Shown here: one piece after another, positions 9,254-34,365 of the stretch
How the letters are laid out: each line of letters begins with the position of its first letter
Position numbering within the stretch: the stretch's first letter is position 1
Source of the DNA: Candidatus Micrarchaeia archaeon
Lineage (GTDB): Archaea > Micrarchaeota > Micrarchaeia > CAILAH01
DNA: 39,235 bases
NCBI GenBank assembly: GCA_049970015.1
Contig: JBMFNT010000003.1
Location: 1 to 39,235 of the forward strand
Direction: 5' to 3'
Notes under the pieces: model-generated
Databases searched by the model: none
The model's input: the letters and a program-made list of their open reading frames with translations, nothing else
Told to the model about the DNA's origin: nothing
Made by a program: the position numbers and the translations under genes

Positions 9254-9481
9254 CTATTTCAACAAGCGTTCAACAGATTCACATACCCTCAACAGGCGTG
9301 CATGCTCGTTGAATGATGCACGGAGCGCTGTCAGATCAGTGGCGCTCATGTACACCACAACCTCTCCTTTGTCAACACTAACCCGGGACTTACATCTATC
9401 ATGCTCATCACCCTGTCCAATCGCGGCCACTACTCCATCCGGGTCTGGTACTGCCAGCCTAAGCGTGCATTCGTAAGCCAT
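9254..9481 (-). CDS. KEOPS Pcc1-like small protein
   Basis: MAYECTLRLAV...VSVDKGEVVVYMSATDLTALRASFNEHARLLRVCESV resembles Pcc1/CTAG-fold proteins, which commonly sit next to pfdB in archaea. Start chosen at the internal ATG 9481; the upstream part of the listed ORF is hydrophobic junk. Confidence 0.55.
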   Translation of the reverse strand: MAYECTLRLAVPDPDGVVAAIGQGDEHDRCKSRVSVDKGEVVVYMSATDLTALRASFNEHARLLRVCESVERLLK

Positions 9482-10456: not shown

Positions 10457-11755
10457 ATGACATATTCAACGCTTGCAGAGGCAAAAAGGGTTAATTCATT
10501 GCTCGATAATTATGAGCTTCCATCAGGTGAGGATGACTGCAACGTAAAGGTGGAAGAGCTGATTGAGATGCGCGAGAGATTGATCAGGATGGGGTTTGAC
10601 AAGAAATTCATGAGCAATCTGCTGGTAGCAAAGAAAGATATGCTTACTAAAAATGAAATCAGCGATGTGAAAAAGCAGGTTGCTGCAATGAAATATGCAA
10701 ACTATGTCAAGAAAAGCACTTTAAGAAGGATTGATGATGCAATTGCAAGTTATAGACTGGCACACCTATACTTAAGAAGTGGTACTCTTGAGAATGCGTA
10801 CAGGCACCTACCATATGATGGGAATGTGCTGAAAAGAATTTCCAGCTTTGGAGCAACTGCTGCACGTGCATACTTTGAGATAGACAAGTTGTTGAGTGGG
10901 GAGCTTGAAAGGCTTGGAATATCTGCAAAGGTTGCAATACCATCTGAGAATGGCATAAAGTATGAGAGCATACAGCTGTACAAAATACGCGACCTTGATG
11001 ATTACATATCACGGGAATATGGGAAAGATGCAGAGATTGTAAGAACCAAGATAATTACAAGGTACAGGAGCATACTCGGTGCAAAGGCCTACAGGAGGGT
11101 GCTTGCATGCGCATATGTCTCATCAGTCTTTGAGAATAATCCTATTGATATGAAAAGCGATGACCTATTGCTGCAAGGGTACTATTCTCTTTTGTCAAAG
11201 TATGGTATTGTGGAACCTGTACGCATAGATATGTTGTTAGATCCGGATGAAAGACTTGTAGATGAAATGATTAAAGAAGGATATTTATACTTTGAGAACA
11301 ATAAGCTGCAGATAAACGAGGAACTTGGAAAAAAATTGAATGAAGATATAAACAAAAAATACTGGGAGATTATGAAGAAAATCTACATCAACCTGTCTGA
11401 GGAGTTTCTTAAGCTTATGATTCTTACAACAAAAGGTACAAGAAAGGCGCTTGGGATATTCTCATTTGATGATGATATTGAGCTTGCAAGGCCAATAATT
11501 GAGAAAACTACCCTGCTTGGAATTAAGAATCCTTATGAAATGATCATGCAGAAAAACAGCATGGAAGATATTCCGAGCTTCAGCAGTAAAAATGTTGGCC
11601 TAGCCGTATTTCTTTATTTTCAGGGAGAAGAGAAATTGAGGAAGCTGTTTGGAGTTGACCCAAAATCAATAATGAATGAGTATGAAATAGTAAAGGCATA
11701 CTTTGAGGGTAGTAGTGGAAGGGGTGAAAAGTTCCTTGAATACCTCAAGAAATGA
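10457..11755 (+). CDS. Hypothetical protein (432 aa, soluble, helical)
   Basis: Long uninterrupted ORF starting 10 nt after the membrane-protein gene. No motif recognised. Confidence 0.5.
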   Translation: MTYSTLAEAKRVNSLLDNYELPSGEDDCNVKVEELIEMRERLIRMGFDKKFMSNLLVAKKDMLTKNEISDVKKQVAAMKYANYVKKSTLRRIDDAIASYRLAHLYLRSGTLENAYRHLPYDGNVLKRISSFGATAARAYFEIDKLLSGELERLGISAKVAIPSENGIKYESIQLYKIRDLDDYISREYGKDAEIVRTKIITRYRSILGAKAYRRVLACAYVSSVFENNPIDMKSDDLLLQGYYSLLSKYGIVEPVRIDMLLDPDERLVDEMIKEGYLYFENNKLQINEELGKKLNEDINKKYWEIMKKIYINLSEEFLKLMILTTKGTRKALGIFSFDDDIELARPIIEKTTLLGIKNPYEMIMQKNSMEDIPSFSSKNVGLAVFLYFQGEEKLRKLFGVDPKSIMNEYEIVKAYFEGSSGRGEKFLEYLKK

Positions 11756-14106: not shown

Positions 14107-15618
14107 TTACTCAACCTCCTTCTGGGTGAGGAAATAAACTCCAACACCCACTATTAATATGAGTATCACCGCAAGCACTGCAACTATTGGCAAACTTCCA
14201 TTTCCAAAGAATGCTGCGACAACTGCTGTAATATCCAAGGGCTTGTTGTCCACAGATTGCTGGACAGATTTATTAACAGCAACCACACTGAACTGCCCGG
14301 AAACATCGCTTATGCTGAACACGTAAGTACCATCAATGCTTGCCTTGAGGCTTACCTTACCATTTGTACCTGTCTTCAAAATAATCTTCTTACCAATCGG
14401 GTCTTTAACTAATACCTCCCTATTCGCAACAGGCTTTCCATACGAAGAAATGGATATAGTTATTGTATCTCCAACATAAACCTTCTTTGGGTGTGAGACT
14501 TCAATCTCTAAAGGTGTTGCCCCTGCATACAGTGTTGCGTTCTGTGTTGATTCCTCAGGTTTGTTGGGTTCAACCACGGGCTCAGCATTTTCCTTTGCTG
14601 GGTTCGTAATACTAACTACATATATCCCAGTCCTAGATTCGCTCGTGTCATCACCTGCACCTCCTCTACTTGAACTGCCTGAACTGCTGCCTGAACCATC
14701 CTGCTGGCCTGAGCCATTTGAGCCTGACACAACAGCTATCTTAAGATTGTCTACTATATTATCATTATACTGTGCAACCATAACATACTTCATGGCCTCA
14801 CTGCCTGACTTGAAAACACCGCTCACACGACCCCTTGAATCCGTAACACCGTAAACCACTACCCCATCATCACTGCCAACCTCTAAGCTTGCTACAGGCC
14901 TAGTAAGACCTTCTGATTGTAAGTATACCTTTACCCTCTTGCCACTAACTGGATTGCCATCACCATCCTTTAACTCAACATAAAATTTGGTCTCTGTGTT
15001 AACGAGAACATTTGATGCATCACCTGAAAATACTATATCTATGCTTCTAGGATTGTTATCCTGCTGGCCTGAGCCATTTGAGCCTGACACAACAGCTATC
15101 TTAAGATTGTCTACTATATTATCATTATACTGTGCAACCATAACATACTTCATGGCCTCACTGCCTGACTTGAAAACACCGCTCACACGACCCCTTGAAT
15201 CCGTAACACCGTAAACCACTACCCCATCATCACTGCCAACCTCTAAGCTTGCTACAGGCTTAGTAAGACCTTCTGATTGTAAGTATACCTTTACCCTCTT
15301 GCCACTAACTGGATTGCCATCACCATCCTTTAACTCAACATAAAATTTGGTCTCTGTGTTAACGAGAACATTTGATGCATCACCTGAAAATACTATATCT
15401 ATGCTGGATGGTTCTCTAACATTATCATCGTCATCTGAGTTGCTTGGAATATTTGGGGGAATATATGTCGGAACATCTACTGATGGAGTATTAATCACAT
15501 TTTCATACACTGTAAGCCCACTCGTATCTATATTATTTATATTCAGAGCATATGCAATACCTGCAAAAAGCAACACTGCTAAAGCAAATATCCAAGTTAC
15601 AAACGCTATCTTTTCCAT
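14107..15618 (-). CDS. Type-I anchored surface protein with duplicated Ig-like (Big-like) domains
   Basis: N-terminal signal peptide, two nearly identical 120-aa units (SIDIVFSGDASNVLVNTETKFYVELKDGDGNPVSGKRVKVY...), a G/S-rich linker, a third beta domain and a C-terminal TM helix (IVAVLAVILILIVGVGVYFL). Confidence 0.65.
   Translation of the reverse strand: MEKIAFVTWIFALAVLLFAGIAYALNINNIDTSGLTVYENVINTPSVDVPTYIPPNIPSNSDDDDNVREPSSIDIVFSGDASNVLVNTETKFYVELKDGDGNPVSGKRVKVYLQSEGLTKPVASLEVGSDDGVVVYGVTDSRGRVSGVFKSGSEAMKYVMVAQYNDNIVDNLKIAVVSGSNGSGQQDNNPRSIDIVFSGDASNVLVNTETKFYVELKDGDGNPVSGKRVKVYLQSEGLTRPVASLEVGSDDGVVVYGVTDSRGRVSGVFKSGSEAMKYVMVAQYNDNIVDNLKIAVVSGSNGSGQQDGSGSSSGSSSRGGAGDDTSESRTGIYVVSITNPAKENAEPVVEPNKPEESTQNATLYAGATPLEIEVSHPKKVYVGDTITISISSYGKPVANREVLVKDPIGKKIILKTGTNGKVSLKASIDGTYVFSISDVSGQFSVVAVNKSVQQSVDNKPLDITAVVAAFFGNGSLPIVAVLAVILILIVGVGVYFLTQKEVE
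14698..15405. repeat. Near-perfect tandem duplication, period 360 nt
   Basis: 14698-15045 and 15058-15405 are 348 nt each and differ only at 14900 (c) versus 15260 (t). A 12-nt unique junction separates them. The duplication is in frame within the surface-protein gene. Confidence 0.95.
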
Positions 15619-18126: not shown

Positions 18127-19263
18127 ATGGGCATTGCCTCAGGGATAACAAAGCTTGATGAGCATCTAGGGGGCGGGTTTGAGCAGGGTAAGAGCATTGC
18201 AATAGTTTCAATACCTGGGATTGATGCACGCGTGTTTGCATACCATATCATAAGCACAAACCCAACAATGAAAACGCTGTATGTTGTAGAAAATATATTC
18301 CCAGACCAGATTGAACGGGATGTTTCAAGATATTTGTTTTCTGGAAAAGCGTTCAGCAATACAATGTATTTTGATGCATTTTCTACGGGGTTGGGAATGC
18401 CAAGCAGACAAAAGTATTATGCAAAGGACGCAACTGACATGCAAAATGTTGCAGAAAGCATAATAAATGCTGTGTCCAGTGAGAAGCCATGGCTTGTAAT
18501 AATTGACTCATTATCAGGGATGCTTGCAAAGGCCAAGAACAAGGAAAGTGTGTGGAGCATGATAAGGAAGCTCACGGATAATGGTACGACTGTATTGTGT
18601 ATATATACAAAATGGGATGAAAAGGAGGCAGAAGATGTAAAACAGAGGCTTGATTATGTAATAGAAACCAAGAGTGTTGAAGAAAGGCTTTTGTCAAGAA
18701 GATATTTTAGGGTGGTAAAGGCACCAGGTAAATTTAATGCTTCAGCCGTGCCGTTCAGGATAGGGTTTGATGGAATTGCCCTTTATGTACCAAAAATAAT
18801 CATAACGGGACCGTTCCATGCAGGTAAGACAACATTTATACACAAGATAAGCACACGTGCCGTTTCAGTAAACAGGATGGGTACAACCATTGCGCTTGAC
18901 CATGGGTATGTCGAGCATAGCGGGTTCAGTGTTGACCTGTTTGGTACACCTGGCCAGGAGAGGTTTGAGTTTATGCTTGACATACTAAACAAAGATGCGT
19001 TTGGGGTTGTACTCATTGTTGATTCAACAAAGCCAGAGACTTTTGAGAGGGCAAAACAGATGCTCGCACATGTTTCAAGGTATAGCCTGCCTTATGTGGT
19101 GGTTGCAAATAAACAAGATTTACCATCGGCACTTCCACCTGCAAAAGTTAAGGAAATGCTCGGATTAGATGCCGAAGTTGTGGGTGCTGTTGCCATTGAA
19201 GGAAAGGGATGTATTGAAGCACTTAAAATACTCATCAATAATATTGTTGAGAGTGGTGCATGA
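18127..19263 (+). CDS. Fusion protein: KaiC/RecA-like domain lacking a P-loop, joined to a small GTPase (COG2229-like)
   Basis: The N-domain GITKLDEHLGGGFEQGKSIAIVSIPGIDARVF aligns to KaiC-like GxPGTGKT with the Gly, Lys and Thr replaced. Walker-B-like LVIIDSLS is retained. The C-domain has G1 GPFHAGKTT, G3 DLFGTPGQERF and G4 NKQD. Confidence 0.7.
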   Translation: MGIASGITKLDEHLGGGFEQGKSIAIVSIPGIDARVFAYHIISTNPTMKTLYVVENIFPDQIERDVSRYLFSGKAFSNTMYFDAFSTGLGMPSRQKYYAKDATDMQNVAESIINAVSSEKPWLVIIDSLSGMLAKAKNKESVWSMIRKLTDNGTTVLCIYTKWDEKEAEDVKQRLDYVIETKSVEERLLSRRYFRVVKAPGKFNASAVPFRIGFDGIALYVPKIIITGPFHAGKTTFIHKISTRAVSVNRMGTTIALDHGYVEHSGFSVDLFGTPGQERFEFMLDILNKDAFGVVLIVDSTKPETFERAKQMLAHVSRYSLPYVVVANKQDLPSALPPAKVKEMLGLDAEVVGAVAIEGKGCIEALKILINNIVESGA

Positions 19264-19919
19264 GGGTGGTTATGAAAAGCGGAATAAGTGAACTGGATGA
19301 TGCACTTAAGGGTGGCCTGCGTGAGAAATCTAACGTACTGGTTATTGGGCCTCCTGGCACTGAAAAGGTTATGCTTGCAGTTAGGTTCATATCAGGTGGG
19401 ATAGAAAGTGGGGATGGGATGGTCTACATAACCACAGACTTGCAACCGAGTGAGATTGAGGAAAAAAACCCTGAACTTAGCGGGCACACAAATAAGGAAC
19501 TTTTGTTCATAGATTGTTATTCCTGGACACTTGGGGCACAGCAGAGTGAAAGGAAAGATATAACCGTTCCTGGGCCAAGTGCGTTAAATGACCTTAGCAT
19601 AGGCATTGCACAGGCAATGCAAAAACTCTTCAAACCTGAAAGAAAACTAAGAGTAGTGTTTCAATCACTCTCAACACTTCTGCTCTACAATAATCCTGAA
19701 GTCATATACAGGTTTACACAGATTACTGGGGCACGGTTAAAAGGCAGTAATGCCACAACATTGTTTTTGATTGAGGAAGGAATGCATGACGATAAAGTGG
19801 TGACTACACTTAAGCACCTCGTTGATTCTGTGATAGAAATAAAGAGAGATAATGAAAAGATACTTGTAAGGGCCCCTATGGATGGGCTTGTCCAGTGGAA
19901 AGAAATTACACTTTCTTAG
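19260..19919 (+). CDS. KaiC-like (RecA-superfamily) protein with degenerate Walker motifs
   Basis: GISELDDALKGGLREKSNVLVIGPPGTEKV matches the KaiC-like fold, but the Walker A GKT is EKV and the Walker B position reads VVFQSLS (Asp to Gln). Its ATG overlaps the upstream stop (ATGA). Confidence 0.7.
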   Translation: MRVVMKSGISELDDALKGGLREKSNVLVIGPPGTEKVMLAVRFISGGIESGDGMVYITTDLQPSEIEEKNPELSGHTNKELLFIDCYSWTLGAQQSERKDITVPGPSALNDLSIGIAQAMQKLFKPERKLRVVFQSLSTLLLYNNPEVIYRFTQITGARLKGSNATTLFLIEEGMHDDKVVTTLKHLVDSVIEIKRDNEKILVRAPMDGLVQWKEITLS

Positions 19920-30316: not shown

Positions 30317-31477
30317 TTACGGTTGTTTCCAGTCTATTTCATAGTATTCGTATCTGCTGCCCTTCATCTCTATCCTCCTAACCAAGTAGTATGTGACGCT
30401 CGTCTCACGGTCAACGATTGCTAGAAGAAGGTTAAGGCCTATCCTCTTTGCAGACTCTATTGCGCCTGCAAGGTATGCACCGCTTATCTTCTCATCCTCA
30501 TTCAGCGCAAGCATAAGATATTTTGGAGAGCCGTTGTCAGGAGTTTCAATACCGCCTTTCTTCCTATGGTATAAAAGGAAATCTGCCTGCGTTTCACTCA
30601 CTAATTCCTCTCCTGGGATTGCAAGTATGAATGTTTTGCGAACGGAATGTGCAACACGGATCGCGCGCGAAAGCTCTGAGGTTAAAAGCTGCATATCACG
30701 CGGAAATACATGTAGCACATGTTTTGAGTGTATCCATTCATCCTCTTCGCGTGCAGGTGATGCACCTGGAAAATATATCCTGAAATGCGTTCCAAACTTA
30801 AACCCTGTCTTTACTATAAACCCGCGCAATCTCCAATCTTCATAAACGTTGTATATTGGCTCAAAAAAACTGTTATTCATCTTTGCATAACTTATGATCT
30901 CTTCAACAGTTGCATTCTCGATTTTTATTGAGCTGTGCTTTGCAAGAAACACTGTTTCAAATATGTCAAGCTTGGAATACTTGCCATGCTTGTCTGCCTT
31001 GTAAGTGCCATACTGTCCAAACCAGTACTCACGATACATACGCTCTCCAATCTCGCTATCATCGATCACTGACATGTTGTCATCTGGGTAAAACCGCGCC
31101 ACTGCACCATACTTTGGAACATCAAAGCCCGGGGAGGGATATTTCTGTGTTGGGTTTCTTGAGTATGTCTTTGCTTCTGAAACCGGCCTAATAACAAGGC
31201 CGCGGTCTCTCCAGTCCTTGAATGCGTAATACCTTGTCATAAGCCTTGGCACATCACTATAATGCGAGGCAAGCTCATTAAACCGCATCTCCCTACCAAA
31301 TTCATCAAGGCATCTGCCATTGCGCACATCGAGCATGTACATTGCATCTTCCGGGGAAAGGAATACTGCTGCACCTTCGCTCTCACCATAGTAAGCCTTT
31401 CTCAAAGTGGATACGCTAGATGGGTCACCAACAACAAGTTTCCTGTCCTCTTCAAAAAACTCTATCTCTATTGGCAA
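30317..31477 (-). CDS. endA: tRNA-splicing endonuclease, single-chain three-unit architecture
   Basis: Unit 1 is an N-domain ending in YYAFKDWRDRGLVIRP without a catalytic core. Unit 2 is a full catalytic unit, YNVYEDWRLRGFIVKTGFKFGTHFRIYFPG...HSKHVLHV...RVAHSVRKTFILAI (Y/H/K triad). Unit 3 is an extra C-domain, ADFLLYHRK...KYLMLAL...RIGLNLLLAIVDRETSVTYYLVRRI. The proposed start is the in-frame TTG at 31477. The listed ATG at 31627 would overlap xpd by 102 nt and add a hydrophobic non-homologous leader. Confidence 0.8.
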   Translation of the reverse strand: MPIEIEFFEEDRKLVVGDPSSVSTLRKAYYGESEGAAVFLSPEDAMYMLDVRNGRCLDEFGREMRFNELASHYSDVPRLMTRYYAFKDWRDRGLVIRPVSEAKTYSRNPTQKYPSPGFDVPKYGAVARFYPDDNMSVIDDSEIGERMYREYWFGQYGTYKADKHGKYSKLDIFETVFLAKHSSIKIENATVEEIISYAKMNNSFFEPIYNVYEDWRLRGFIVKTGFKFGTHFRIYFPGASPAREEDEWIHSKHVLHVFPRDMQLLTSELSRAIRVAHSVRKTFILAIPGEELVSETQADFLLYHRKKGGIETPDNGSPKYLMLALNEDEKISGAYLAGAIESAKRIGLNLLLAIVDRETSVTYYLVRRIEMKGSRYEYYEIDWKQP

Positions 31478-31489
31478 GCAATCGACCCA

Positions 31490-31501
31490 AATTATATAAA
31501 A
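31490..31501. promoter_or_regulatory. Palindromic TATA element (TTATATAA) in the 48-nt endA/xpd divergent spacer
   Basis: attatataaaat lies 25-35 nt upstream of the xpd ATG (31526) and is the only AT-rich box in the spacer. Its spacing to the endA TTG is shorter than ideal, so its use for endA is uncertain. Confidence 0.35.
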
Positions 31502-31525
31502 TGAGAATAAGTTATTAATGTTGCT

Positions 31526-33337
31526 ATGAAACTGCTCACACGGTACAGGAAATTGAGGAAAGGACAAGAAGAGATGGCACATGATGTGTACAATGCAATA
31601 ATCAGAGAAATGAACATTATGGTACACGCGCCAACTGGAATAGGAAAAACAGATGCATCACTGGCTGCGGCCATAACTGCTGCAACTGAAACTGGGAGCG
31701 ATGTTTTGTTTATAACACCAAAAAACTCACAGCACAAGATTGCAAATGATGTTGTCAAAGGAATATGTAATGCATACAATCTTGGCCTGTGCTCGAGCGA
31801 GTTGGTTGGGAAAAAGCATATGTGCAACTTAAAGCGCACTGAAAACCTGCAGTTTGAGGATTTTTACCATATGTGCAGGATGCGCATAAAGAACGGTACA
31901 TGTCCTTATTATGAGAAAGCAAAGGATGGCAGAAACATTGCACTTCCTGAACAGTTTAATCTCACACATAATGAGTTGTGTGAACTGGGGCAGAAGAGAG
32001 GTGTTTGTGCATATGAGCTTGCGATGGGGGCGGCATCAAGGTCGCAAGTCATCATAGGAGATTATTCGCACGTGCTAATGCCTGCAATCGCATACCCTTT
32101 CCTTAAAAGGTCAGGAAAGACACTTAAAAACTCCATAGTGATTGTTGATGAGGCCCACAACCTGAGTATAAGGTTGCGCGAGCACCTGTCAAGCAGAATG
32201 TCGGAAAAGATGATAATCAGAGCAAGGAAGGAATGTGCACATTTTGATTCTGAACTCCTATCATTCCTTGAGAAAAAGTTTGGGGACTGGTGCAGGTATA
32301 CACTAGGAAGAAGAGATGAGAGAACTGTTGATAAAGAAGAATTGCTTAAGCTTATTGAACTTGAAATGCAGATTGAAGAACTCGTTAATGAGCTTTACGA
32401 GATAGGTGATAAGTGGATTGAGGAAATGAACGTGGCAAGTGCATGCATAAGGATTGCAAACTTCATAGAAATGTGGGTTGATGATACAAATGAAGAAAAG
32501 TTTGCAAGGATAGTGAAAGAAAGCAATGGCAATTATTTTGTTGAAAAGCTGTGCCTGTCTCCAGACATTGTAACTTCAAAGCTTAATGAGGCAATATCTG
32601 CCGTCCTTATGAGTGGTACATTGAAGCCGTTTGAAATGCACAGGGATGTTATCGGGCTTGATCCTCAAAGGACAATGTTTAGAGAATATGAAAGCCCATT
32701 CCCAAAAGATAACTGCCTTAAGCTTATTGATGGATCAATAACTACAAGGTATTCAAAAAGAGGGAAGGAGGAGTACAAAAAGGCAGGAAAGCGTATTTCC
32801 GAATTGTGTGCAATTAATCCAGGTAATGTAGCAGTGTTTTTCCCAAGCTATGAGGTTCTGAGAGGCGTGCTACCATATATAGAACCCGGGACCAAAGAGA
32901 TGATCGTGCAAAAACCTGATATGAGCCCGCAGGAAGTAAAATCAATAGTAAACAGGTTATGTGCAGAGGATGGGTATATACTTATCGGAGTACAGGGAGG
33001 AAGTCTATCGGAAGGTGTTGATTATGAAAACAATGCCCTAAAATGTGTAATAATTGTGGGGGTGCCGCTTGAAGAGATGAATGTAGAAGTTCGGGCAAGG
33101 ATTGAGTACTATGATAAGGTTTTTGGGAAGGGATGGGAGTATGGGTATGTAGGGCCAGCAATAACAAAAAGCCTTCAGGCTGCTGGCAGAGCTATAAGAA
33201 ACGCTGATGATAGAGCAATCATAGTGTTTCTGGATGAGAGGTTTGAGTGGAAAGGATACAGAGAATATTTGGGTGATGCTGAAAAAATGGAATATTCAAA
33301 AATAGATATGTTTTGGATTGATTATTCTGGGGGTTGA
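31526..33337 (+). CDS. xpd: XPD/Rad3-type Fe-S DNA helicase (DinG family)
   Basis: Walker A HAPTGIGKT, the Cys cluster C...C..C....C (KKHMCNL...YHMCRMRIKNGTCPYY...GVCAYE), DEAH box VDEAHNL, and C-terminal motifs QAAGRAIR. Confidence 0.9.
   Translation: MKLLTRYRKLRKGQEEMAHDVYNAIIREMNIMVHAPTGIGKTDASLAAAITAATETGSDVLFITPKNSQHKIANDVVKGICNAYNLGLCSSELVGKKHMCNLKRTENLQFEDFYHMCRMRIKNGTCPYYEKAKDGRNIALPEQFNLTHNELCELGQKRGVCAYELAMGAASRSQVIIGDYSHVLMPAIAYPFLKRSGKTLKNSIVIVDEAHNLSIRLREHLSSRMSEKMIIRARKECAHFDSELLSFLEKKFGDWCRYTLGRRDERTVDKEELLKLIELEMQIEELVNELYEIGDKWIEEMNVASACIRIANFIEMWVDDTNEEKFARIVKESNGNYFVEKLCLSPDIVTSKLNEAISAVLMSGTLKPFEMHRDVIGLDPQRTMFREYESPFPKDNCLKLIDGSITTRYSKRGKEEYKKAGKRISELCAINPGNVAVFFPSYEVLRGVLPYIEPGTKEMIVQKPDMSPQEVKSIVNRLCAEDGYILIGVQGGSLSEGVDYENNALKCVIIVGVPLEEMNVEVRARIEYYDKVFGKGWEYGYVGPAITKSLQAAGRAIRNADDRAIIVFLDERFEWKGYREYLGDAEKMEYSKIDMFWIDYSGG
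32318..32355. repeat. Dispersed 38-nt repeat, copy A (inside xpd)
   Basis: gagagaactgttgataaagaagaattgcttaagcttat is identical to 35433-35470 except at 32339 (g) versus 35454 (a). Confidence 0.9.
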
Positions 33338-33843
33338 CAACTGTTGTAAAATTTCATGAGCTCGTCTTCACTTACGCTTCCCTCAAGCACTTTACCATTC
33401 AATGTACATATATACTGAGGGACTACTGCACGCATGTTAGTGCAACCTGCCAGATTTACATACAATTTAGTATTGCTTGCATCTACTTTTGCTATGGGAT
33501 ATCCACGGGAAATCAGGTTATCTATTATTGGGTTCATCTGCTGACAGTATGGGCAAGTCGGCAGGTACATATACACAAGCACTGATTCAAAGCCCATTGT
33601 CTTAAAGCATTCCTCAACACTCTGTACTGCTTTCTGCCCATCTCCTGTTGCATTCGTGTCAAGCCCTTCATCAAACTCTGTTATATGCTCGTTCGCTTTA
33701 GAGATAGAGTTGCTTATGCTTTGTACAAATAAGTATATGGATACTAAGAGCAAGATTATGATTATGATTATGCCAGCAACAAGATATGTTTTTGGCACTT
33801 TACCCGGCTCAAGCCTCTTTGAAAGTTTTTTTGTGTGCTCCAT
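33322..33843 (-). CDS. Membrane-anchored thioredoxin/glutaredoxin-fold protein
   Basis: N-terminal TM helix and redox motif LPTCPYCQQMNP in a ~100 aa thioredoxin-like domain. The 3' end overlaps the xpd 3' end by 16 nt (convergent). Confidence 0.7.
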   Translation of the reverse strand: MEHTKKLSKRLEPGKVPKTYLVAGIIIIIILLLVSIYLFVQSISNSISKANEHITEFDEGLDTNATGDGQKAVQSVEECFKTMGFESVLVYMYLPTCPYCQQMNPIIDNLISRGYPIAKVDASNTKLYVNLAGCTNMRAVVPQYICTLNGKVLEGSVSEDELMKFYNSCQPPE

Positions 33844-33937
33844 AAAGATAATATCCTATGCATAAAATAAAAATGTATCTTGGTTAAAAAGTATGCATGG
33901 GCCCGTAGCTCAGTTTGGATAGAGCGGCGCTCTCCTA

Positions 33938-33969
33938 TAAGCTTTTTATTTTAGAAAAGAAAAGGAGCA
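33938..33969 (+). other. tRNA intron 1 (32 nt, canonical 37/38 position, relaxed BHB)
   Basis: Loop nt 32-35 CUCC pair with intron GGAG (33964-33967). The 3' site sits in a CA|A bulge and the 5' site in UA|U. The outer helix (CUUUU/AAAAG) is displaced by an internal loop. Confidence 0.75.
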
Positions 33970-33991
33970 AGGCGAAGGTCGAGGGTTCAAA

Positions 33992-34031
33992 TGCACTGGT
34001 GAACTGCACAACTTCACTAAAAAGCTGAATT
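33992..34031 (+). other. tRNA intron 2 (40 nt, T-loop position 59/60, strict hBHBh')
   Basis: The T-stem acts as h. UUCA (nt 54-57) pairs with intron UGAA (34026-34029) as the 4-bp H. The bulges are AA|U and UU|U, and the outer helix is GC/GC. Confidence 0.75.
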
Positions 34032-34071
34032 TCCCTCCGGGCCCGTTCTGTATATGTTTTGGGTCTTTGGT

Positions 34072-34365
34072 CTACTCAAACCCTAAAAGCGATTTCCAGT
34101 TTAATACATTGATCGTATACTTATCTTTTTTCTCCTTGTTTGGTTGCTCCTGTGTGCTTTCCTGTCCCGGTGTTTGTTTATCTTCTATCCGCTCTGGCAA
34201 TGGTTGCTGCTTAGGTACCTTAATAACCTGTGGCATCTGCTTTACTGAGATTGTTTGAGGAGCTGTTTGCCTATTCTGGAAGTAATATGCTTCCAGCCTT
34301 GAAATCCTCCTGTCTATATCTTCAAGCTTTGCATATATATCCTCAAGGGTTATCTTATCTGCCAT
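34072..34365 (-). CDS. Hypothetical small protein (coiled-coil N-terminus, Q/P/K-rich tail)
   Basis: 97-aa ORF divergent from mvk. No motif recognised and the composition is biased. Confidence 0.35.
   Translation of the reverse strand: MADKITLEDIYAKLEDIDRRISRLEAYYFQNRQTAPQTISVKQMPQVIKVPKQQPLPERIEDKQTPGQESTQEQPNKEKKDKYTINVLNWKSLLGFE

Follow-up and report, generated by a model that had tools for sequence, protein, structure and literature searches.

A tRNA-Arg(CCU) gene with two introns near an ε2-type splicing endonuclease gene in a Micrarchaeota archaeon

A tRNA-Arg(CCU) gene in three collinear exons

The window analysed here, a stretch of 39,235 nucleotides from contig JBMFNT010000003.1 (assembly GCA_049970015.1), contains a 147-nt locus that reads as a tRNA-Arg(CCU) gene in which two introns separate three exons (Table 1). 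The locus lies between a thioredoxin-like gene and a small ORF, and none of the window ORFs of at least 80 aa overlaps it. On the raw 39-kb window, ARAGORN and Rfam (gathering and E-value thresholds) gave no tRNA match. When both introns are removed in silico, ARAGORN identifies the remaining 75 nt as tRNA-Arg(cct), with a regular cloverleaf, a T-loop reading UUCAAAU and a single mismatch, a G.A at 27-43. The original prediction had proposed these exon and intron boundaries, the anticodon CCU and a 75-nt product with one G.A at 27-43; all of them hold, and the comparative data described below agree with the ARAGORN cloverleaf. As read from the sequence, the gene does not encode CCA.

Table 1. 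Features at and around the tRNA-Arg(CCU) locus, with the tRNA-Lys(CUU) gene of locus L078 used for RNA evidence. Positions are those of the window unless another locus is named.
Feature	Position	Strand	Length	Description
ε2-type (three-unit) tRNA-splicing endonuclease EndA	30317-31477	-	386 aa	Pfam tRNA_int_endo and tRNA_int_endo_N
Thioredoxin-like gene	33322-33843	-		Neighbour of the tRNA locus
Putative archaeal TATA-like promoter element	33863-33879	+		TAAAATAAAAATGTATC; centre ~28 nt upstream of the tRNA 5' end; presumed function
tRNA-Arg(CCU) gene	33899-34045	+	147 nt	Two introns
Exon 1	33899-33937	+	39 nt	Acceptor 5' strand, D-arm, anticodon stem 5' strand, anticodon loop to A37 (CCU)
Intron 1	33938-33969	+	32 nt	Canonical 37/38 position; relaxed BHB
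Exon 2	33970-33991	+	22 nt	A38, anticodon stem 3' strand, variable loop, T-stem 5' strand, T-loop U54-A59
Intron 2	33992-34031	+	40 nt	59/60 in T-loop; strict hBHBh'
Exon 3	34032-34045	+	14 nt	U60, T-stem 3' strand, acceptor 3' strand, discriminator G
Oligo-T tract	34057-34060	+		12 nt past the tRNA gene; possible archaeal transcription stop, from sequence
Small ORF	34072-34365	-		Neighbour of the tRNA locus on the other side
tRNA-Lys(CUU), L078	L078:11784-11899	-		Predicted 41-nt 59/60 intron at L078:11797-11838 (59/60 motif scan)

Other kinds of interrupted gene were considered for this locus. A split or permuted tRNA gene is ruled out by the collinear order of the three exons within 147 nt on one strand, and group I or II self-splicing introns by the size of the inserts (32 and 40 nt), which have no Rfam match at gathering or E-value thresholds. 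The 3' CUGA of intron 2 prompted a search for a C/D-box guide RNA; it revealed no box C and no Rfam match, CUGA belongs to the conserved BHB helix of the intron, and this candidate was rejected on these grounds. In its intron mode, ARAGORN mis-called the form from which only intron 2 had been removed as tRNA-Ala, and this wrong call was therefore left out of boundary setting. No further hidden tRNAs emerged when the 39-kb window was scanned for T-arm motifs and G+C islands. One such island, at 9409-9461, has minus-strand start- and stop-like triplets beside it and lacks any tRNA-like feature.

BHB motifs at the two introns

We took a motif as strict (hBHBh') when two 3-nt bulges on opposite strands enclose a 4-bp helix and flanking helices of at least 2 bp are present, and as relaxed (hBH/BHL) when at least one bulge and the central helix lie beside an exon stem. 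Intron 2 has the strict hBHBh' motif that had been claimed for it. Its central helix H pairs T-loop UUCA (54-57) with intron UGAA over 4 bp, its bulges AA|U (5') and UU|U (3') measure 3 nt each, and both flanking helices are present: h is the 5-bp T-stem, which runs directly into H, and h' consists of GC/GC followed by an internal hairpin. Under the rule that cleavage follows the second bulge nucleotide, these elements place the intron at 59/60.

Intron 1 was expected to have a relaxed motif, and its structure agrees. The central helix is formed by CUCC of the anticodon loop and GGAG of the intron, with the 3' bulge CA|A directly beside the anticodon stem. The motif is relaxed because there are zero contiguous h' pairs, which leaves the 5' site (UA|U) inside an internal loop that an A/U hairpin closes. 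Compared with the canonical strict 37/38 intron (Marck and Grosjean 2003, as summarized in PMC4033280), intron 1 is alike in its position, 4-bp helix and 3' bulge and unlike in its non-contiguous h' and in the placement of the 5' site in an internal loop. A fold that holds the cloverleaf stems together with both BHB motifs has an energy of -47.8 kcal/mol, 0.3 kcal/mol from the MFE of -48.1 kcal/mol. The MFE fold already holds the central helix and 3' bulge of intron 1 and the h' of intron 2, and it adds one U-A pair to the former helix.

The sequence at the exon borders is redundant by one nucleotide: A ends both exon 1 and intron 1, and T starts both intron 2 and exon 3, so that registers 36/37 and 60/61 give the same mature sequence. 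A real gene could accordingly be cut one nucleotide away from the assigned positions, at 36/37 (removing 33937-33968), at 60/61 (removing 33993-34032) or at both. Besides the redundancy, which permits the same product, the additional U-A pair in the MFE fold and the RNA joint of a related gene in locus L078 (described below), which has the same one-nucleotide ambiguity of position, are in keeping with such a shift. We nevertheless consider it distinctly unlikely, because the second-bulge-nucleotide rule, applied symmetrically across the 4-bp helix, fits 37/38 and 59/60 in all orthologues, and because ARMAN-2 introns are reported at 37/38 and 59/60 (PMC3239211).

Independent copies and source of the locus

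An identical 147-nt locus is present in an independent NCBI assembly, GCA_049972225.1 (L098), which differs from the window at 22/7812 positions. A Logan contig from a hot-spring metagenome run also spans the locus, with 0 differences inside it and a sole mismatch at 34182. Because it is identical in both, the tRNA locus is not an assembly artefact. Coverage of the locus in that run is low (~5x), a point in favor of reading it as a chance resemblance or as an assembly chimera of tRNA fragments; against that reading stand the two identical copies, a two-intron architecture shared by six loci counting the window, and the rarity of the motif in shuffled sequence. Shuffling intron 2 produced a strict BHB in the right register in only 0.13% of trials, and shuffling intron 1 produced the 4-bp helix in 0.24%. 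We regard a chance or chimeric origin as extremely improbable, and the orthologues and the independent assembly effectively refute it. In hot-spring run X1, a 50x contig matches only 31 nt of the tRNA 5' half (33898-33928) and then diverges; it belongs to a tRNA from another organism of higher abundance and is no second copy of this gene.

The window represents ordinary archaeal chromosome, with genes for thiolase, HMG-CoA synthase, geranylgeranyl reductase, PriS, GINS, aIF2α, pyruvoyl arginine decarboxylase, XPD, mevalonate kinase and RadA. Relatives of its EndA ORF are encoded in 80 genome loci, most of them labelled Micrarchaeota, Micrarchaeia or Micrarchaeaceae, while a few are binned under other names (Marsarchaeota, Mancarchaeum, and one bin each of Methanothrix and Acidiferrales); identity reaches 78% in the best match. 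The runs that contain the window locus are DNA of hot-spring metagenome only. The host is an ultrasmall Micrarchaeota (ARMAN-2-like, DPANN) archaeon of a hot-spring community.

Intron content and conservation among orthologues

The orthologue set was drawn from five EndA-linked genome loci (L001-L005) and 17 metagenome contigs found with an exon-1 pattern (L081-L097). Twenty-one orthologues were delimited; L091, left out by the script, reads as an intronless gene. Exon 1 has the same or nearly the same sequence in the 21 orthologues, and 21/21 splice in silico to a 75-nt tRNA-Arg(CCT). Both introns are present in the window, L001, L002, L003, L081 and L093, with lengths in these six loci of 27-106 nt for intron 1 and 31-74 nt for intron 2. 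Ten loci have the 37/38 intron only, L086 and L088 have the 59/60 intron only, and L084, L094, L095 and L097 have no intron. Intron 2 is absent at exactly 59/60 in 14 orthologues, and introns homologous to that of the window occur in L001, L081, L093 and L086.

The intronless orthologues carry the exact predicted junctions, CUCCUA|AGGCG and UUCAAA|UCCC, and score 65.8-68.6 bits on Rfam RF00005. In one of them, L097 (67 bits), three positions differ from the spliced window sequence, two of these being compensatory partners. On RF00005 the L004 gene, with its single intron, reaches 51.5 bits, and the two-intron orthologue genes are missed by the Rfam tRNA model. Across 15 distinct mature sequences, 96.2% of the cloverleaf cells are paired and compensatory changes occur in 7 pairs, compared with 22-53% of cells pairing in a control in which partners were slid by 1-3 columns. 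The G27.A43 mismatch recurs in 12 of these 15 sequences and, being conserved in the lineage, is no sign of decay.

Both introns diverge around a constant core. In 8/8 carriers, the H of intron 2 remains 4 bp long (UGAA or UGGA), holds its register and is flanked by 3-nt bulges, while the intron varies in length from 31 to 74 nt and diverges in sequence; at least two contiguous h' pairs are found in 5/8. The helix and 3' bulge of intron 1 are kept in 16/16 carriers, the helix with 3 or 4 of 4 pairs, and intron 1 of the L001 orthologue has the strict form with a 7-bp h'.

These data bear on whether the locus might be a disrupted, non-functional pseudogene whose inserts are never removed, AGG being read by tRNA-Arg(UCU) or by another CCU gene. 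Such a state would be in line with the silence of standard tRNA finders on the raw locus, with its appearance in DNA runs only and with the relaxed motif of intron 1. Its exons, however, are perfectly conserved and its stems show compensatory changes, and the BHB helix and bulges of both inserts persist among orthologues even though the insert sequences diverge. The A/T-rich block upstream of the orthologous gene is likewise conserved in an alignment of L001-L004, and a matching broad-specificity EndA that looks intact is present in the window. Furthermore, of 354 Arg codons counted in 21 window genes, 46% are AGG, the most used Arg codon there, which argues against a dead tRNA gene. Weighing these points, we judge a pseudogene to be very improbable.

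Two orthologous loci have an additional interruption. In L005 (minus strand, ~40 nt upstream of minus-index 8880) and L086 (L086:1394-1457), an extra intron follows position 9 of the tRNA-Arg(CCU), with the form GGGCCCGUA|A...CGGG NN|GCUCAG and a BHB helix between acceptor CCCG and intron CGGG. Across relatives, the tRNA-Arg(CCU) gene is therefore interrupted at three different sites. L003 (minus-index ~10487-10640; plus ~28-181, near the contig end) has two extra tandem units of ~62 nt downstream of its tRNA-Arg, each comprising a 3'-exon-like TCCCATCGGGACCG and a trailer CTTCTTAATT. An integration or duplication event may have left these units behind, or they may be a contig-end assembly effect.

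A predicted ε2 endonuclease encoded near the tRNA gene

The EndA ORF of the window matches the EndA of ARMAN-2 (PDB 4FZ2) with E = 2e-126 and 50% identity over 376 aa (query residues 11-386), and assembly GCA_049972225.1 has the same 386-aa gene call. Its conserved residues include the catalytic Y236/H251/K282, the bulge-binding R275, W384 and K228, and Y160/K161 of the ASL; the residue roles of ε2 EndA (catalytic, bulge-binding and ARMAN-specific loop) are those given in PMC12397907. The predicted product is a full-length ε2 three-unit splicing endonuclease. It resembles the ε2 EndA structures 4FZ2 and 9W2K (Hirata 2012, PMC3488258; PMC12397907) in the Tyr/His/Lys residues, in R275/W384 and in the Tyr-Lys of the ASL, and it departs from 4FZ2 in half of the aligned residues, the window enzyme being known from sequence.

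The original prediction had placed a broad-specificity endonuclease 2.3 kb from the tRNA gene. An ε2 EndA is indeed encoded nearby, as the Pfam and 4FZ2 matches indicate, although the distance is 2.4 kb (31477 to 33899). A broadened enzyme had also been held to be required for introns outside the anticodon loop; the two do co-occur, but this amounts to correlation rather than requirement, because the T-loop intron 2 is the strict one and the relaxed one is intron 1. The strict hBHBh' motif is a substrate accepted by every archaeal EndA type, whereas broad specificity toward relaxed motifs has been shown for (αβ)2 and ε2 enzymes (PMC3239211). ARMAN-2 EndA in vitro cleaves strict 37/38 and relaxed 59/60 introns (PMC3239211). 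By analogy, we infer that the window EndA would excise both tRNA-Arg introns. Since intron 1 has no contiguous h', its 5' cut would depend on the assumed broad specificity of this enzyme. In the window ORFs that were compared with Pfam, no RtcB domain appeared.

L081 and L093 have the gene neighbourhood seen in the window, made up of EndA, the thioredoxin-like gene, the tRNA and mevalonate kinase. In the window, the gene for an XPD-like helicase (31526-33337, plus strand) separates EndA from the thioredoxin-like gene. This helicase has no room in L001-L003 and L081, where the matches to EndA and the thioredoxin-like gene are no more than ~200 nt apart and the intron-rich tRNA-Arg is only ~0.7 kb from the endonuclease gene.

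RNA evidence from a related MAG

As a proxy for an RNA test, we used L078, a locus of a Micrarchaeaceae MAG with an EndA 48% identical to that of the window and a different tRNA, the tRNA-Lys(CUU) with a predicted 59/60 intron (Table 1). A metatranscriptome contig from run X11 skips exactly the predicted 41 nt and contains leader, tRNA and trailer without mismatch. Contigs from RNA runs X9 and X10 of the same study retain the intron; in those from four peat DNA runs, two of them belonging to that study, the intron is always present and no joint occurs. The X11 joint is consistent with in vivo splicing of 59/60 introns in the Micrarchaeota lineage; it was seen in one assembled contig, and rare DNA variants can be lost from Logan contigs. 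This contig keeps ~72 nt of leader and ~54 nt of trailer; as both are still attached to the spliced RNA, splicing may precede end trimming. The locus of a cultured relative, Micrarchaeum A_DKE (L046), has no disrupted tRNA and only an intronless tRNA-Lys.

Proposed processing of the tRNA-Arg(CCU) precursor

We estimate a probability of roughly 90% that this tRNA-Arg(CCU) gene with its two introns is functional and is processed by the neighbouring ε2 EndA. Transcription would yield a precursor of ~147 nt plus leader and trailer, in which CUCC would pair with GGAG and UUCA with UGAA to form two 4-bp BHB central helices. The homodimeric ε2 EndA would cut this precursor after the second nucleotide of each bulge, at UA|U and CA|A for intron 1 and at AA|U and UU|U for intron 2. 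An RNA ligase, presumably of the RtcB type and encoded outside the window, would join the three exons, and end trimming and CCA addition would produce a 75-nt tRNA reading AGG. The order given here for these steps is a presumed one.

Comparison with known systems

Genes of this kind, together with the unusual enzyme, were described for the lineage in 2011. In ARMAN-2 (Candidatus Micrarchaeum acidiphilum), Fujishima et al. 2011 reported that 56% of tRNA genes are disrupted, co-occurring with an ε2 enzyme; pre-tRNA-Cys(GCA) has a 59/60 intron, and pre-tRNA-Pro(GGG) has two T-loop introns, at 53/54 and 59/60 (PMC3239211). ARMAN-1 and ARMAN-2 are among the few lineages with multi-intron tRNAs (PMC4033280). 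The proposal that such tRNAs are restricted to a few archaeal lineages is consistent with both sources, which list Micrarchaeota/ARMAN-2 among them (PMC3239211, PMC4033280). The window gene shares with the disrupted tRNAs of ARMAN-2 the phylum, the ε2 family, the 59/60 site, the use of the T-loop in the BHB and the occurrence of multi-intron genes. It is unlike the ARMAN-2 genes compared, tRNA-Cys and tRNA-Pro, in its isoacceptor (Arg-CCU) and in its pairing of a relaxed 37/38 with a strict 59/60 intron, and unlike ARMAN-2, an organism of acid mine drainage, in its hot-spring origin and in having an EndA that is only 50% identical. The gene is a correct but ordinary find, and its novelty is low because the system was already known in Micrarchaeota; it provides one more case of an ε2 endonuclease co-occurring with heavily disrupted Micrarchaeota tRNA genes.

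The second system compared is that of the Thermoproteales (Crenarchaeota), whose multi-intron tRNAs occur with an (αβ)2 EndA (Sugahara 2008 and Fujishima 2010, as summarized in PMC4033280). Going by that summary, the likenesses are non-canonical positions, relaxed motifs and intron presence that varies among relatives. The likenesses also include, in that account, up to three BHB introns per gene and similar introns at different sites, which are read as transposition. The enzyme, as characterized there, is a heterotetramer with a crenarchaeal specific loop, in contrast to the three-unit homodimer with an ARMAN-type loop predicted for the window, and the phylum differs as well.

Introns at 59/60 are not confined to the tRNA-Arg(CCU) gene. 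Scanning 1.5 Mb of loci, mostly Micrarchaeota genome loci, for the 59/60 motif returned ~24 credible tRNA introns, seven in tRNA-Arg(CCU) orthologues and ~17 in other tRNA genes; 59/60 T-loop introns are lineage-wide in Micrarchaeota. The ~17 further introns have a common UUCAAA|...UGAA NN|U design, and most of their genes are missed by standard finders. The loci concerned are L022, L027, L029, L034, L045, L050, L061, L065, L066, L072, L073, L074 and L078. As default finders miss the tRNA-Arg(CCU) gene, MAGs of the clade will seem to be without a tRNA for the most used Arg codon, and this apparent absence distorts estimates of completeness and codon capacity.

Possible movement of introns among relatives

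The 59/60 intron of the L088 tRNA-Arg (GAGCCCTTTTTGGGATGCCTAAAAGCGC..., L088:7491-7616) shows clear homology to the intron at 37/38 in the tRNA-Arg gene of L002, L081 and L093 (by local alignment, z = 7-10, 0/200 shuffles), and this sequence similarity suggests that an intron moved between sites of the gene. The tRNA-Arg 59/60 intron of L086 resembles the 59/60 intron of a tRNA-Ala in L081 and L093 (z = 5.8-7.6), and the three insertion sites (9/10, 37/38 and 59/60) are variably occupied among close relatives. Comparison of the window introns with other sites and genes gave no significant relative (z ≤2.6), their detectable relatives being at the same site only. We propose tentatively, and with rather more doubt than confidence, that BHB introns may still be mobile in Micrarchaeota and that the window introns may be products of that process.

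The occurrence of similar introns at differing sites matches what has been described in Thermoproteales as intron transposition, as reported in PMC4033280. Within a limited literature search, there appears to be no earlier description of intron transposition in Micrarchaeota. If the proposal is true, transposition, which in the sources consulted is so far described only for Thermoproteales with their (αβ)2 EndA, would also operate in a DPANN lineage, and in one that gained broad-specificity splicing independently, through ε2 EndA. The comparative set is worth more than the single locus, as it offers a natural series for BHB intron gain, loss and movement.

The tRNA-Ala gene mentioned above has the anticodon GGC and a G3.U70 pair and contains both a 37/38 and a 59/60 intron. 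It is found at L081:3953-4086, at minus-index 1760-1893 of L093 and also in L002, lying ~0.5 kb downstream of tRNA-Arg in L081 and L093 and ~40 nt downstream in L002.

Other features of the window

The ORF at 14107-15618 (minus strand), with Big_1 and DUF4198 domains, contains identical 65-nt strings at 14841 and 15201, 360 nt apart, which are an internal tandem duplication in a putative surface protein. At 18127-19919 (plus strand), two KaiC-like ATPase genes adjoin each other, the first of them fused to a small Ras/Arf-like GTPase domain.
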